Below, piece after piece: positions 25,803 to 38,228 of a stretch of DNA of 64,000 nt (positions within the stretch are counted from its first letter, which is position 1; every line of letters begins with the position of its first letter). Below the pieces are notes generated by a model. That model had not been told where the DNA came from and ran no database searches. It saw only the letters and a list, made by a program, of their open reading frames with translations. Position numbers and translations under genes: made by a program. The stretch lies in NCBI GenBank assembly GCA_965218295.1, contig CBDCKN010000015.1, forward strand, positions 384,001 through 448,000, given 5' to 3'. Source of the stretch: Longimicrobiales bacterium. GTDB taxonomy: Bacteria; Gemmatimonadota; Gemmatimonadetes; Longimicrobiales; Gaopeijiaceae.

Positions 25803-26813
25803 TCACGGGGCCCTGGTGGCCACGGGCGTCGGCAGGCCGCAAGAGTCCCGGAACGATTCGCTCCAGCCGACGTCCTCTCGCTTCAGGGTGGCGATCCAGA
25901 CGGAGCTCTCACCCAGCACCTCCAGGATGAGCTCGGGTGTGCCGTCGCCGTCCACGTCCATTCGGCCGAAGTAGCGCGCAGCACCCTTGCCGTGCTGGCT
26001 CCATACCCGGTAATCGACGTACGTGGTCTGGTATCCACTGCCGTCGGGGTCGGAGGCGATGAGGAAGACCGAGTAGGCGTCGGGGGGCGCGGGTCCCACC
26101 TTTAGGGAGTCGCCGTACACGAAGGTCGCGACGACCGTAGGAGCCTCTTCGGAGCCGTTCCGGAACATCTGTATGTCACGCCGGATAGCGAGGACGGATT
26201 CGGGCCAAGTGGCTCTCAGCGTGGGCAAGAGTGCCCTCATCATGTTGAGCGACATGACTCTCAGGTCACGAGTCTGCACGACCGTCTCATGATCCTCGTA
26301 CGCGAACGATGCCCCGACATCGCTCGAAAGAGCGAGGAAGGTGTTGGTAGCGGACGCGTTGGGGACGACCTCGATGGGACCACGGACCTGGGGTCTGGCC
26401 CCGCAATACGACGCAACCGCGCTATACTCGGCTGCCGTGAGAGTGCCCACCCGCACCCCCTCCGAGAAGAGGGTGAACGTCGAGCCCCCCGCGAAGTGTC
26501 GCTCTGTAAATGCTCGGCTGTCCTGGGCCGAGCCATCTCCTGGAAGCGCGTGTAGCCCATCGGCGTGCATCTCCGCCACAGGCACCAGCCAGGCCTCGGA
26601 TCCTACCCGCCGGCCCAGGTACAGGACGGGCTCCGAGGGCTTGGGAGTCACGGGAGTTGCAGTCGTGTCAGCGGGCGGAGCAGGAGCCTCCATGATCGTA
26701 GGCTCCGAGGGAGATCTCAACCTCATGTCGACCCCTCCCCACTCCACGTTGTCGCAACCCAACGCGACCATTACAATCCCGAGCAACGGGACCCTCTGAA
26801 GGCCTTTGACCAT
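25803..26813 (-). CDS. Hypothetical lipoprotein
   Basis: Lipobox-like ALGC; DVDGDGTPE motif near the C-terminus. Confidence 0.7.
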   Translation of the reverse strand: MVKGLQRVPLLGIVMVALGCDNVEWGGVDMRLRSPSEPTIMEAPAPPADTTATPVTPKPSEPVLYLGRRVGSEAWLVPVAEMHADGLHALPGDGSAQDSRAFTERHFAGGSTFTLFSEGVRVGTLTAAEYSAVASYCGARPQVRGPIEVVPNASATNTFLALSSDVGASFAYEDHETVVQTRDLRVMSLNMMRALLPTLRATWPESVLAIRRDIQMFRNGSEEAPTVVATFVYGDSLKVGPAPPDAYSVFLIASDPDGSGYQTTYVDYRVWSQHGKGAARYFGRMDVDGDGTPELILEVLGESSVWIATLKREDVGWSESFRDSCGLPTPVATRAP

Positions 26814-26909: not shown

Positions 26910-27559
26910 TTGAGGGCCCGTCTGGCGTGGGTGCCCTCTTTCGTTGTGGGGGCGGCCGCGGCCACGGCCGCAGCCGTCGCCGTGGCACTGTTGCTGTACT
27001 CGGGAGAGGGCATGCTCCGGTCGCTGACGCTGATCGTCGCGGTCGAGCTTGTGGCCTTGGGCGCCGGGCTGGCGGGTCCCCCGGTGGCGGAGTGGCCGGG
27101 GGTGGTGGAATCTCTCCGGAGGCGATGGCTATCGGTGCTCATCACCTTCCTGGCCGCGTCGGTCTTTACAGTCGCTTGGACGTTCGGGGAGGGGTTTGGC
27201 GCGGGGGCTACGACCCAGGCTCTCGGCCTGGCGTTGCTGGCCGGGTTGCCACTCTACGCTTGTGGCCGCCTCCTGGCGGCTATCTCTACGGTGTGGATTG
27301 ACGATGGGCCGCCGAGGGCCGGGGCAGTCGCCGCTCTGGGTGTGCCGCCCTCGGGGTTCTGGCGACCGGCTTGAGCGGACTGTCGCGCCTGGGTGCCCCG
27401 TCTCTCTTGCTTTTCTTCCTCATCGTCCTGTCCGGCACCGCCCTCTTGCAGGGATGGATTCTGGAGGGGGCGGTTGAGTCGGACACTGACGTGCCGTCGG
27501 AATCAAACGTGGACCTGGAGCCTCTTGCGAAGCCCGAGTCCGAGATGAAGCCCTCGTGA
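26910..27559 (+). pseudogene. Multi-pass membrane protein, frameshifted near 27342
   Basis: ORFs 26910-27374 and 27371-27559 join into one hydrophobic protein (AVAALGAALGVLATGLSG) if the duplicated GT at 27342-27343 is removed. Its stop overlaps the next start (GTGA). Confidence 0.65.
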
Positions 27560-28635
27560 TCATCGCCCACTTCTCTGACCTCCACCTGGGGTACCGGGCG
27601 TACGCCCATGTGGAGCAGGGCCGCAACGTCCGGGAGTCGGACGTTACCCGCGCTTTCCACCAGGCCATCGAGAAGGTTATCGGACTGGGCCCGGCGGCCG
27701 TGGTAGTGGCGGGTGACGTGTTCGATCGGCCGGAGCCCCCTCACTCCGCCCTGGTAGCCCTCGCACAGGGGCTCCAGGCCCTCCGGGAAGCTCTCCCGGA
27801 CACCCCGGTGCTCTTGGCGGCGGGGGCGCGCGATACACCGGCTCCCGTGGCCGATCCGGGTCCGCTGGCGACGTTCGACACCATGGCCGCCGTGGAGGCC
27901 GTGACCGGAACGATGCGCTCGGTGTACTACTCTCAGCTGGGTTTGAACGTGACGCTCGTTCCCCATCGGGCCACGCTGCAGGGACCGCCTCCACCGGTGG
28001 CTCCCAACCCCGATGCTCGCTGGAACGTGCTAGTGGGCTACGGATCGACGGACGGAGGGGACGATGCCATGCTCGCATTGGACCCCTCGAAGTGGGACTA
28101 CGTGGCTCTCGGCTACGAGCACCACCGCCGGAGGGTTGGAGGGCCTGTGCACTATGCCGGATCCCTCGAGCGGGTGGGGCCTACGCCGTGGGAGGAGGCG
28201 GCTGAGGAGAAGGGCTTCCTGACGTGCGAGCTGGAGTCGGGGCGTGTTCGCTTCCACGCCATCCACGGTCGTCCCGTCGTCTCCTTGGCCTCGATCCCGT
28301 ATGAGACGGATCGCCCGAACCGGCTCCGCGAACGTGTCCAGGAAGTACTGGACGAGGTCCCGGGTGGAATCGAAGAGAAGATCGTGCGTATTCGCATTGA
28401 GGGGCTTCCCCCGGACCGCTTGGACCTGCTGGAAGGGCTCTTGCCCGAGTACCGACGCAGAGCTCTGCATCTGGAGGTGCAGCTCGATGACCGAACGGCT
28501 GGAGGGGAATCCGCCGAGGAGCGGCCCTCGGTGCGCTTGGCGTCCAGGCTGGCGGAGCGCCTCACGGAGGATGGGGGGAGCCTCGAGGATCTGGTACGGC
28601 TGGTGGAGGATTGTCTCCCAGCGACGCAATTGTAG
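27556..28635 (+). CDS. Mre11/SbcD-like metallophosphoesterase with degenerate active site
   Basis: SDLHLG, AGDVFD, WDYVALG and YAGSLER motifs are present, but GNHD reads GARD and GHxH reads GYEH. Confidence 0.85.
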   Translation: MIIAHFSDLHLGYRAYAHVEQGRNVRESDVTRAFHQAIEKVIGLGPAAVVVAGDVFDRPEPPHSALVALAQGLQALREALPDTPVLLAAGARDTPAPVADPGPLATFDTMAAVEAVTGTMRSVYYSQLGLNVTLVPHRATLQGPPPPVAPNPDARWNVLVGYGSTDGGDDAMLALDPSKWDYVALGYEHHRRRVGGPVHYAGSLERVGPTPWEEAAEEKGFLTCELESGRVRFHAIHGRPVVSLASIPYETDRPNRLRERVQEVLDEVPGGIEEKIVRIRIEGLPPDRLDLLEGLLPEYRRRALHLEVQLDDRTAGGESAEERPSVRLASRLAERLTEDGGSLEDLVRLVEDCLPATQL

Positions 28636-28647
28636 GAGGACAGCGCG

Positions 28648-30060
28648 TTGAGCAGCCTCAATCTCGGCACATCGTCGTCGGACGCGGACCGGCTGGGCTT
28701 CCGGCTCGGCCCCGGCCTTGCCGCGCTCGTCGGTGGCGACGGACCGCTCCGCAGCGAGGCGCTCGAGCGATTCGCCGGTCCACTGGCGAAGGGCGACGAG
28801 CGGTTGGCGACGCTGGTGGCCGGACACGGACTGACGGAGCCCGCACAGGCGTGGCGTCGCGCCGTGCGAGTGCTGGCGCAGTGGCTCGGACTGGACGGGG
28901 TGGACAGGGAGCTTTCGGATCTGGAGAGAGAGAGTTCGGCGAGCTCGGGCCTCATCTCTATGGACTCGGGGGTGGAGAACCTCCGTGCCCGGATCCAGGA
29001 GCTCCGTCGGCTTCCGGAGGCCGTGCGAATGAAGGAGCGTGAGCTCCGGGAGATGCGGGCCGACGCAGCGGAGGTGAGTGGCGACATGGAGGTCGCCAAC
29101 ATGGACTGGCTGCGCGAGAGGCAGGACGCGGAGACGCACCTCCTGGCCTATCGGGATCGGGCCCGTGAGCTGAAGGTGCGGCTCCAGCAGCTGGAGGCTG
29201 GGGGCCCTGAGAGCGAGTGTCCCACGTGCGATCGCCTGCTCGCCGAGCGGTTCGAGTCCGTTTTGACCGTGCTACGTGAGGAGTGGGAGTCGGTCGTTCA
29301 GGACGGCAGCTGGTGGAAGCGGCGTCGAGAGCAGCTGGACTTCAAGCCTTCTCATCTTCAGGACCTGGAGGGGAAGGCGATCCGGCTTCAGGCGGCGATC
29401 GAGGAGTGCACGGAGGAGGTGGAGCGTATCCGTGCGCGGCTCCCGGAGTTGGCGAAAGCCGAGGACACGCTCGCCGCGGTACAGGCCGTTGGAACCTCGA
29501 GGGATCGACGGAGATCGACGCAGGTGGAGGACCGCGGGGTGGCCAGCGAAGACGTCGATCGGCGTCGCCGGGCTCTGGAGGCCCTCCGAGCCGAGCTGCT
29601 CTCGGACGCCCGGGACATGCTTGCGGGGCGGACGGGCCGCTACCTCAATCACTTGACCAGCGGCGGCGTTCTGGGCGTGGGCCTCACCGGAGACGGAGAG
29701 CCTACGGTCGTCTGGGACGAGGGGGCGAGACGGCTGCAGTCCGACGAGGAAGTGGCGGCGTACTTGCTCGCGCTCCGGCTCGCGCTCATCGATCTCGCCG
29801 CCGAGCGTGGAATTCAGTTCGAGGAGGTGCTCCTCGGTGATACCTTCGACCGCCTCGAGCCTGAGGCCAAGGTCCGGGCCGTCGGGCTTCTTCGGAACAT
29901 GCTGCCCCAGGTTCCGAAGATCCTCCTCTTCTGCCGGGGCGAGATCCTGGACACGATTCCCGAATCGTTCGATTGGATCGTGGACCTGCGTGTGGACCGG
30001 GCCGGCGCGCCTCATACGCGCGTCCGCAGAAGCGGAGTGGGGAAGCTACGGGTCCACTGA
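28648..30060 (+). CDS. Short Rad50/SbcC-like coiled-coil protein with zinc hook and degenerate ATPase motifs
   Basis: Central CPTC flanked by coiled coils. C-terminal LALRLAL...VLLGDTFDRLE follows the SbcC layout. Lies next to the SbcD homolog. Confidence 0.75.
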   Translation: MSSLNLGTSSSDADRLGFRLGPGLAALVGGDGPLRSEALERFAGPLAKGDERLATLVAGHGLTEPAQAWRRAVRVLAQWLGLDGVDRELSDLERESSASSGLISMDSGVENLRARIQELRRLPEAVRMKERELREMRADAAEVSGDMEVANMDWLRERQDAETHLLAYRDRARELKVRLQQLEAGGPESECPTCDRLLAERFESVLTVLREEWESVVQDGSWWKRRREQLDFKPSHLQDLEGKAIRLQAAIEECTEEVERIRARLPELAKAEDTLAAVQAVGTSRDRRRSTQVEDRGVASEDVDRRRRALEALRAELLSDARDMLAGRTGRYLNHLTSGGVLGVGLTGDGEPTVVWDEGARRLQSDEEVAAYLLALRLALIDLAAERGIQFEEVLLGDTFDRLEPEAKVRAVGLLRNMLPQVPKILLFCRGEILDTIPESFDWIVDLRVDRAGAPHTRVRRSGVGKLRVH

Positions 30061-36850: not shown

Positions 36851-38228
36851 GAGCTAGGATCAAAGGGTGTGTAAAAAGAGAGGCGACGTACCTTTCCGCT
36901 GAGTAATAACCAGCGAACTCCGGGTGACAGCCCGGGGGAAAGGAACGACGCCTCGTGAGGAAGAATACGGTGGGACCCGAGGGTGAGTCCAGGACGCCCG
37001 TGTGGGAAGTTCTGGAAGAAGTGGTTCGGGAGAAGGCGCAGGAGTTCATTCAACAGATCTTGGAGGAGGAAGTCACGGAGTTGCTAGGGCGAGAGAAGTC
37101 AGAGCGCAGGAGGGTGGTGGACGCGACCGAGGGCTACCGCAACGGATACGGCAAGCCGAGGCGGCTGGCGATGAGCTCGGGCACGATCACACTCCGACGC
37201 CCTCGAGTTCGAGGCCTTGAGGAGCGGTTCGAGAGCCGCGTGCTGCCGTTGTTCGCGAGGCGGACGAAGGAGCTGGGCGCTCTGCTTCCGGAGCTGTATC
37301 TGCACGGACTGGCGGAGGGAGACTTCGAGTTGGCGATGCGGGGCCTGCTGGGCGAGGGGGCACCGCTGTCGAAGTCTTCGATTCGGCGGCTGCGGGCGGG
37401 ATGGACGGCGGAGTTCGAGGAATGGAGCCAGCGTCGCCTGGAGGGTCGTGAGGTCGTCTACGTGTGGGCGGACGGGATCTATGTGAAGGCAGGGCTGGAG
37501 CGGGACAAAGCGGCGCTGCTGGTGGTGCTGGGTGCCATGCGAGACGGGACGAAAGAGGTGTTGGCCCTGAGAGCGGGCTACCGAGAGTCGGTCGAGTCCT
37601 GGTCCGAGGTGTTGCGGGACCTGAAGGCACGCGGCATCGAGGCGCCCCGGCTTCTGATGGCGGACGGTAACGCTGCGATCTGGGGCGCAGTACGGCAGGT
37701 ATGGCCTGAGGCGGGTGAGCAACGGTGCTGGAACCACAAGATGAGGAACGTGCTGGACCGACTACCTCAGCGGGAGCAGGGCGAGGCGAAGGATCTTCTC
37801 CGGGCCGTGGTCTACGCACCGAGCCGGGCCGAGGCCCTGAAGGCCCGCGAGGTGTTCGCCCGACGCTATAGGCCGTGGTATCCGAAAGCAGTGGACGTAC
37901 TCGAGGACGACTGGGAGCGGATGGTAGCGTTCTACGACTTCCCCGAGGACCACTGGAAGCATCTACGCACGACGAACGTGGTCGAGAGCCCGTTCGCCGC
38001 GGTACGGCTCAGGACGACAGCAGCGAAGCGGTTCAAGCGGGTCGAGAGCGCTACGGCGCTAATCTGGAAGTTGCTCTTGGTGGCCGAGAAGCGGTTCCGA
38101 AGGCTCGACGCTCCTCACCTCCTCAAGGACGTATTTGAAGGAAGAAAGTTCGAAGACGGAAAGCCCGTCTCACACCAACAGCGGAAGAACGCCGCCTAAT
38201 ACGTTTACACACCTATTGACCCAACCTC
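36851..38228 (+). mobile_element. IS256-family insertion sequence, copy 1
   Basis: Imperfect IRs GAGCTAGGATCAAAGGGTGTGTAAA and GAGGTTGGGTCAATAGGTGTGTAAA. Ends defined by comparison with copy 2. No matching flanking direct repeat. Confidence 0.93.
36955..38199 (+). CDS. IS256-family (Mutator-like) transposase
   Basis: YRNGY, VYVWADGIY, ADG, QRCWNHKMRN and RTTNVVES motifs. Confidence 0.95.
   Translation: MRKNTVGPEGESRTPVWEVLEEVVREKAQEFIQQILEEEVTELLGREKSERRRVVDATEGYRNGYGKPRRLAMSSGTITLRRPRVRGLEERFESRVLPLFARRTKELGALLPELYLHGLAEGDFELAMRGLLGEGAPLSKSSIRRLRAGWTAEFEEWSQRRLEGREVVYVWADGIYVKAGLERDKAALLVVLGAMRDGTKEVLALRAGYRESVESWSEVLRDLKARGIEAPRLLMADGNAAIWGAVRQVWPEAGEQRCWNHKMRNVLDRLPQREQGEAKDLLRAVVYAPSRAEALKAREVFARRYRPWYPKAVDVLEDDWERMVAFYDFPEDHWKHLRTTNVVESPFAAVRLRTTAAKRFKRVESATALIWKLLLVAEKRFRRLDAPHLLKDVFEGRKFEDGKPVSHQQRKNAA

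Follow-up and report, generated by a model that had tools for sequence, protein, structure and literature searches.

The 64,000-nucleotide stretch analysed here, which we call the window, belongs to a Longimicrobiales bacterium (Gemmatimonadota; contig CBDCKN010000015.1, positions 384,001 to 448,000) and carries on its forward strand two adjacent genes encoding an SbcD/Mre11-like and an SbcC/Rad50-like protein (27556..30060). Judged by its sequence, this pair is a pseudoenzyme ortholog of SbcCD and, by active-site criteria, not a member of that group of enzymes; it is very probably under selection and without ATPase function. We tentatively propose, with slightly less than even confidence, that the family's own SbcCD ortholog has become a static dimer that needs no ATP and uses the coil flanking its zinc hook to bind a partner protein. 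Our literature searches found no publication on a degenerate SbcC/SbcD pair in Gemmatimonadota or Longimicrobiales, and none describing an SbcCD pseudoenzyme of this kind. The named relatives of the pair belong to the Longimicrobiales, among which we distinguish the family of uncultured members with the degenerate pair (f1) from two sister families with an intact pair (f2 and f3); the intact reference pair of the phylum is that of L071, L067 and L291-L302. The motifs themselves were inspected in 37 f1-type loci, in the best 80 of 228 loci (∼18 of them shared with the former) and in nine more, which represent a part of the 140 genomes carrying the pair; all figures given out of 80 refer to these best 80 of 228 loci. 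Seven unpublished genomes (G037, G056, G232, G234, G298, G381 and G400) contribute to genome tallies only.

Both open reading frames (ORFs) are open and co-oriented, as the original prediction had described, with a GTGA overlap (27556-27559) between sbcD and the membrane gene upstream of it (hereafter M) and a 12-bp gap containing AGGAGG between sbcD and sbcC, and the predicted Mre11/SbcD and Rad50/SbcC identities are borne out by profile and structure matches. The SbcD-like protein (27556..28635, +, 359 aa) consists of a nuclease domain, a capping domain and a C-terminal helix-loop-helix. Its AlphaFold2 (AF2) model has the Mre11 fold (pLDDT 89), all listed Foldseek matches are Mre11/SbcD proteins (3av0_A, E 1e-16), and the best match in a profile hidden Markov model search is 3auz (E 2e-27), the score against TIGR00619 being 48.9 bits, below the cut-off of 77.65; model and structure matches thus point to a calcineurin-like nuclease fold in which the capping domain and the Rad50-binding helices are present. 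Its catalytic motifs (all +) are changed in part. Motif I (SDLH, 27574..27585, with D8 and H10) is kept, as are the bridging Asp of motif II (GDVFDR, 27712..27729), where a His-to-Asp change and a new Arg are fixed in the family, and the second His of motif V (28111..28122), which reads GYEH for GHYH and has lost its first His. Motif III is GARD for GNHD (27823..27834), with the Asn gone and Arg in place of the catalytic His, and the motif IV His is replaced by Tyr (GYG). Among 67 non-redundant sequences out of 78 degenerate SbcD, D8, H10, D54 and H189 are each kept in 66, the Asn and the catalytic His of GNHD are found in none (Arg replacing the latter in 65), the H52-equivalent is Asp in 65, the R55-equivalent is Asp or Glu in 61, and the motif IV His and the first motif V His persist in 44 and 10, respectively. 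All these positions, substituted and kept alike, are invariant in the 16 intact sequences used for comparison; all five motifs are kept in 18/18 sister-family sequences, and GNH occurs in 0/37 f1-type ones. The H52- and R55-equivalents belong to the Mre11 positions that contact DNA, and at a third such position, that of H17, His occurs in 0/67. We take D8, H10, D54 and H189 to be the ligands of metal A and the lost residues to be those of metal B, after the P. furiosus Mre11 structure. The relevant passages of earlier studies describe H85S and H84Q substitutions as yielding nuclease-deficient Mre11/SbcD (PMC11965522, PMC6265447) and H52S as exonuclease-deficient (PMC7260605). The nuclease of the window pair is probably catalytically dead.

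In the SbcC-like protein (28648..30060, +, 470 aa), lobe I is largely deleted and the arms are shortened. Its best structure and profile matches are Rad50, a Pfam scan gave no match, and its model (pLDDT 84, pTM 0.54) consists of a coil with the CPTC turn, flanked by helices 122-188 and 199-229, and ABC lobe II. Aligned to intact SbcC, Walker A has become VGGDGPLRS (28729..28755, +), and the relics of the signature (QSDEE), of Walker B (LLGDTF, in the Walker B/D-loop relic LLGDTFDRLE) and of the H-loop (CRG, in FCRGE) lie within 29737..29943 (+); the CPTC zinc hook (29218..29229, +) is kept. The relatives have gone the same way, as Walker A is found in 0/80 degenerate SbcC and the CxxC hook in 80/80, with signature, Walker B and H-loop replaced, lobe I mostly deleted, and arms, in degenerate versus intact forms, of 201 versus 404 aa from the N-terminus to the hook and 277 versus 405-409 aa from the hook to the end. 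An SGG[EQ] pattern occurs in two of the 80, L187 and L166, in the latter (the same gene as L082) off the signature position. The inference from these motifs that the ATPase of the window pair is catalytically dead is well founded; the claim that the catalytic motifs of both partners are degenerate therefore holds for every motif of the ATPase, but for only half of the nuclease site, which retains SDLH, GD and the last motif V His. SbcD and SbcC are fused into one polypeptide in 55 of the 80 loci, the deepest branches among the fused forms, and this fusion, together with the modelled helix-loop-helix, speaks for a possible stable association of the two proteins. Two fused forms, in G113 (L265:4297-7191) and G138 (L266:2737-5391), are hookless and without M: their CxxC is deleted and both flanking motifs are kept, which suggests that the coil surface, more than zinc, is held. 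Fused dead pairs were also seen on a 4-kb contig from a bin labelled Planctomycetota (L176), which is probably mis-binned, and as two copies (L276, L277) in a single bin with 7% contamination (G176).

The same synteny block contains intact sbcCD in the sister families and the degenerate pair in f1, and the degenerate forms make up one clade, with SH-aLRT supports of 84 in a quick SbcD tree and 100 for SbcC, for which we used a joined-region tree and a hook-only tree with outgroups. The shared block and the single clade identify the pair as the ortholog of intact sbcCD, changed once and in place, and gene order and phylogeny together place the origin of the degenerate form, as a single event, at the base of f1. 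A paralog beside a live copy is ruled out, the pair having replaced the intact copy. The window pair shares with the archaeal-like SbcCD/Mre11-Rad50 of Gemmatimonadota (∼385 + ∼810 aa) its gene order, locus, Mre11 fold with capping domain, helix-loop-helix, antiparallel coil with CPTC hook and ABC lobe II, the hook region being 33% identical to that of L071; it differs in being without Walker A, signature, Walker B, H-loop, metal-B ligands and catalytic His, and in being fused in most genomes. In other orders the hook region was detected in 94/97 and 40/40 genomes, and all 12 loci inspected from them keep Walker A, an ISGGE-type signature and the TH of the H-loop, with GNHD in 10. Within f1, the pair is present in 140/161 genomes: in 136, the match to an intact SbcC query is confined to the hook region, and a search of the remaining 25 with an SbcD profile revealed the pair in 4 and left 21 without it. 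In a sample of the whole phylum just 8/24 f1 genomes matched, genera without the pair being over-drawn (g6, 0/8). The sole f1 genome with a full-length match to intact SbcC, G095 (L104 / L278, G095:C160), owes it to an extra copy that is 33% identical, true orthologs scoring 45-75%; this extra SbcD-SbcC has intact SbcD motifs, co-occurs with the dead pair and lies perhaps on a mobile element. Strong matches to E. coli-type sbcD were found in G007, G012, G020, G030, G033 and G041, and the absence of the dead pair from G007, G020 and G033 suggests replacement by another SbcCD.

The pair is retained with open frames across more than 60 genera. Ratios of nonsynonymous to synonymous substitution rates (dN/dS) are simple NG86 estimates on GC-rich genes; over 14 degenerate pairs (dS 0.37-2.0) they are 0.07-0.19 for SbcD and 0.10-0.20 for SbcC, with one pair at 0.35. 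In 7 genome pairs we obtained 0.06-0.16 for SbcD, 0.10-0.18 for SbcC, 0.08-0.16 for RsgA and 0.17-0.29 for M, the values of neighbours being somewhat inflated since their ORFs were taken from stop to stop; constraint on SbcD and SbcC is thus comparable to that on RsgA or a TMEM260-like neighbour, and M is less constrained. The original prediction had named intact motifs in close relatives and a dN/dS near 1 as signs of a copy that is simply decaying, and neither sign appeared: the f1 relatives are equally degenerate and dN/dS is far below 1, in agreement with its proposal of a repurposed, selected and non-canonical complex. Local decay of the window copy is ruled out by the degenerate relatives, the low dN/dS and the motif tallies. 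The hook coil has a dN/dS of 0.03-0.24 and is mostly the lowest region of SbcC. Mean identities in the hook coil versus the C-terminal lobe are 0.63 versus 0.37 among degenerate forms, 0.54 versus 0.75 in f3 and 0.73 versus 0.91 in f2, and the 19 columns invariant across 77 SbcC all lie within residues 142-230. The hook-proximal coiled coil (residues 137-234; 29056..29349, +), the most conserved part of SbcC, includes the conserved motifs WLRERQDAET (29107-29136, +) and VVQDGSWW (29293-29316, +); R156, Q159, R169, D170, R173, R178, D219, W222 and R226 are invariant and occupy non-core heptad positions in the register that we assigned. These sequence comparisons show that constraint on SbcC moved from the ATPase head to the hook-flanking coil. 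In the hook tree, f1 has a long stem (0.74) and short later branches, which is what one would expect if its function had changed and stasis had then set in.

The prediction had also raised the question of a canonical sbcCD elsewhere in the genome. A hook-bearing intact partner was not found, but the window's genome does contain an intact YhaO/YhaN-like pair (C10:57071-61051) with an AAA_27 match, intact motifs and no CxxC. Among 20 such second loci, 17 have an SbcD-like product in which DxH, GD and GNHD are present, and 17 encode a protein with Walker A, of which 0/17 have CxxC; AAA_27 (YhaN-like) is present in 106/161 f1 genomes versus, at full length, 1/24 sister genomes. SbcE of Bacillus subtilis is likewise described as SMC-like and without a CxxC hook (PMC2811018), and the SbcE/SbcF (YhaN/YhaO) system resembles the window pair in combining an SMC-like protein with an SbcD-like gene. 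It differs in keeping the catalytic motifs that the window pair has lost and in lacking the hook that the window pair has.

A parallel reduction is found in genus g49 of f3. Four SbcC of only 449-520 aa emerged from a search of representatives (P0106, P0114, P0117, P0139), three of them with Walker A and with signature and H-loop eroded. In two g49 genomes such a short SbcC, with Walker A kept and signature and H-loop eroded, occupies the sbcCD locus without SbcD and directly follows a fusion of M with an SDR (L282:5947-7281, L283:5947-7587, L284:1-1395; one genome has two copies), and an SbcD search of both draft genomes gave no match. The joined-region tree was unable to place the short form; the hook-only tree with outgroups nests it among intact f3 sequences (SH-aLRT 94), and its hook is 0.46 identical to f3 and 0.36 to f1. 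It is possible, though we hold this with less confidence than the proposal for the window pair itself, that SbcC of Gemmatimonadota has a second function of the hook coil that is independent of ATP and nuclease, and that this function is what two lineages of Longimicrobiales, each on its own, have reduced the machine to: in one, SbcD survives as a fused pseudonuclease of a one-metal/Arg kind, and in the other it is gone.

The nuclease of canonical complexes is unlocked when ATP is hydrolysed, and their arms alternate between a ring and a rod state, with helices in contact beside the hook (bioRxiv 2020.06.24.160820; PMC11965522). Without an ATP site the ring/rod cycle cannot run, which leads us to infer a static dimer. 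The two chains would stay bound to each other, as one polypeptide in most genomes, and two copies would dimerise via the hook and the helices of SbcD; one structural metal would perhaps be held by the new Arg together with the metal-A ligands that remain. The loss of the DNA contacts of the head and the peak of selection at the coil apex make the apex the likely working surface, where exposed Arg, Trp, Gln and Asp could serve the opposite arm and a protein that the ancestral SbcC had bound before. Repair by end processing may have passed to other nucleases, such as the intact YhaO/YhaN-like pair of the window's genome. Several points weigh against this proposal. The conservation close to the hook may stem from self-association or DNA contact alone, and retention of the four metal ligands at 66/67 fits residual catalysis equally well. 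dN/dS reaches 0.26-0.41 in three near-identical pairs, on 8-25 changes. The pair is dispensable in some lineages, being missing from the 21 f1 genomes mentioned above, including all of genus g6, and a YhaN-like gene was not found in about a third of f1 genomes, such that the hand-over of repair is not general. Finally, 6/8 g49 genomes are without both genes, and the short form may be a stage toward loss.

We favour protein binding over two other functions for the retained surfaces. One, which we consider unlikely, is that SbcD is a re-tuned one-metal hydrolase acting on a small phosphodiester by means of D8, H10, D54 and H189, with Arg92 replacing the second metal, while SbcC merely dimerises it and has ceased to gate its site. 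The near-complete retention of the four ligands fits this idea, as do the derived R92, D57 and R58, which are nearly fixed rather than random, and a dN/dS of SbcD that is the lowest of the locus in several pairs; moreover, the active enzyme LpxH has an Arg at the equivalent position. Yet the Asn is gone from every sequence, the first motif V His and the motif IV His are lost from many, the His85/His84 substitutions cited above yield a nuclease-deficient Mre11/SbcD (PMC11965522, PMC6265447), and both the peak of constraint at the coil end and the SbcD-less short SbcC would be left unexplained. Somewhat less likely still is an ATP-independent DNA binder or tether whose contact with DNA is made by the Arg-rich apex surrounding the hook, not by the head. 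DNA contact by the apex of the (archaeal) Rad50 hook has been proposed in passages of PMC7752040 and PMC10418313, and eight near-invariant Arg together with Trp/Tyr flank the hook here; the conserved stretch, however, has equal numbers of acidic and basic residues, the DNA contacts of the head are gone, and hookless variants exist. As for the DNA tether of the original prediction, its head-mediated version is weakened, since the residues with which Mre11 contacts DNA are gone, as is most of lobe I of Rad50.

The remaining explanations appear improbable to different degrees. That M anchors the dead SbcCD to the membrane in an obligate system of three parts, a version of the membrane-linked scaffold which the prediction had listed as one option, has little probability in our view. 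M does lie directly upstream of the pair, mostly with a 4-bp overlap, in 67/80 loci, and in L180 (2174-5341) M, SbcD and SbcC share one frame, but the deletion that joins them takes out motif I of SbcD and reflects either a real fusion or an assembly error. M is, however, dissociable from the pair: it is frameshifted in the window and in one other study, already lies, fused to an SDR, upstream of intact sbcCD in 11 loci and thus predates the degeneration, is kept in 12/21 f1 genomes without the pair (one copy broken; all 7 of genus g6), evolves under a higher dN/dS, and is missing beside the pair in G070, G077, G113, G138 and G147 (four of these genomes being single-contig), where sbcD directly adjoins rsgA or a flavin reductase gene. 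A slow decay of the pair, made redundant by the takeover of its role by the YhaO/YhaN-like one, is less probable again; it would account for the lineage-wide losses, the longer branches, the variable head and the frequency of the YhaN-like gene in f1, but hardly for open frames at a dN/dS of 0.06-0.18 across so many genera, for invariant derived residues, or for a retention (140/161) exceeding that of the intact pair in f3 (40/64). That the pair is a decoy or sensor for phage-encoded SbcCD inhibitors seems very improbable. SbcC shows weak profile and fold similarity to the coil and head of Lamassu LmuB and Wadjet JetC (E 5e-8 to 7e-5), as would any Rad50-like coil; LmuB and JetC are active ATPases that mobile defence loci encode together with effectors, whereas the window pair, without ATPase motifs or an effector gene alongside, is a slowly evolving, single-copy, vertically inherited core locus among housekeeping genes. 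No relative of it was found in the viral contigs and phage records searched, and a PADLOC scan gave no match for M or SbcD. We give least credence of all to the predicted dominant-negative regulation of a canonical SbcCD via hook heterodimers. The universally kept hook would allow it, but the pair replaced the intact copy in place, an intact hook-bearing ortholog was not found in 160/161 f1 genomes (the exception being the extra copy of G095), and the YhaN-like protein, absent from many carriers of the pair, is hookless in 17/17 cases, which excludes such heterodimers.

M is an old neighbour and not a required subunit. In the window its 5' part (26910..27374, +; 154 codons, start uncertain) is ended early by a 2-bp insertion in a GT repeat (27340..27341, +), and the out-of-frame remainder (27342..27559, +), encoding the last transmembrane segments and the tail, ends in a TGA that overlaps the GTG of sbcD; the predicted multi-transmembrane gene is therefore not intact here. 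In the same-genus loci L040 and L011, M reads through to GTGA without this frameshift. Among contigs of four sequencing runs compared, out of 24 listed, the insertion is present in X1 and X2 and missing from X3 and X4, and the frameshift is a real allele, polymorphic among strains. An assembly error is ruled out as its source by the occurrence of the insertion in contigs of two studies, one of which may be the window's source. M is also kept in 7/8 sister genomes without the ortholog (G037 among the 7); 12 loci from other orders showed no M next to sbcCD. Its transmembrane domain resembles that of fused major facilitator superfamily (MFS)/spermidine-synthase proteins (Atlas 0.90), of which the window lineage has the membrane domain only. 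NF037959, the model for these fused proteins, matched the C-terminal domain of 6/14 long f1 forms of M (E 5e-8 to 0.06, all below the cut-off) and gave no match for the window type (best relative 32 bits, cut-off 40). M may be a domain-swapping membrane module, with a divergent spermidine-synthase-like domain in many f1 (upstream genes of L084, L088, L091 and L094-L096), an SDR in the sister families (L059, L068, L069, L075) and neither in the window lineage.

Elsewhere around the locus, a divergent 336-aa lipoprotein-like gene without a Pfam match (25803-26813, −) lies beside it in 39/54 loci, intact and degenerate alike, and a 414-aa ORF at 36955-38199 resembles an IS256-type transposase. 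A promoter scan of the locus returned two 9-of-12 matches, which were not used, and a terminator scan found none.

The two-metal nuclease of Mre11-Rad50 is thought to be gated by an ATP-driven opening of the arms. With a form at hand that lacks the ATPase motifs, has half of the metal site and is nevertheless kept in more than 60 genera, one can test what the hook and the coil next to it do on their own: single-chain fusions of 700-930 aa lend themselves to structure determination and pull-down, and the invariant apex residues indicate where to mutate. If the idea of a second, hook-coil function is true, the reduced pairs of Longimicrobiales would be natural separation-of-function forms of Mre11-Rad50.

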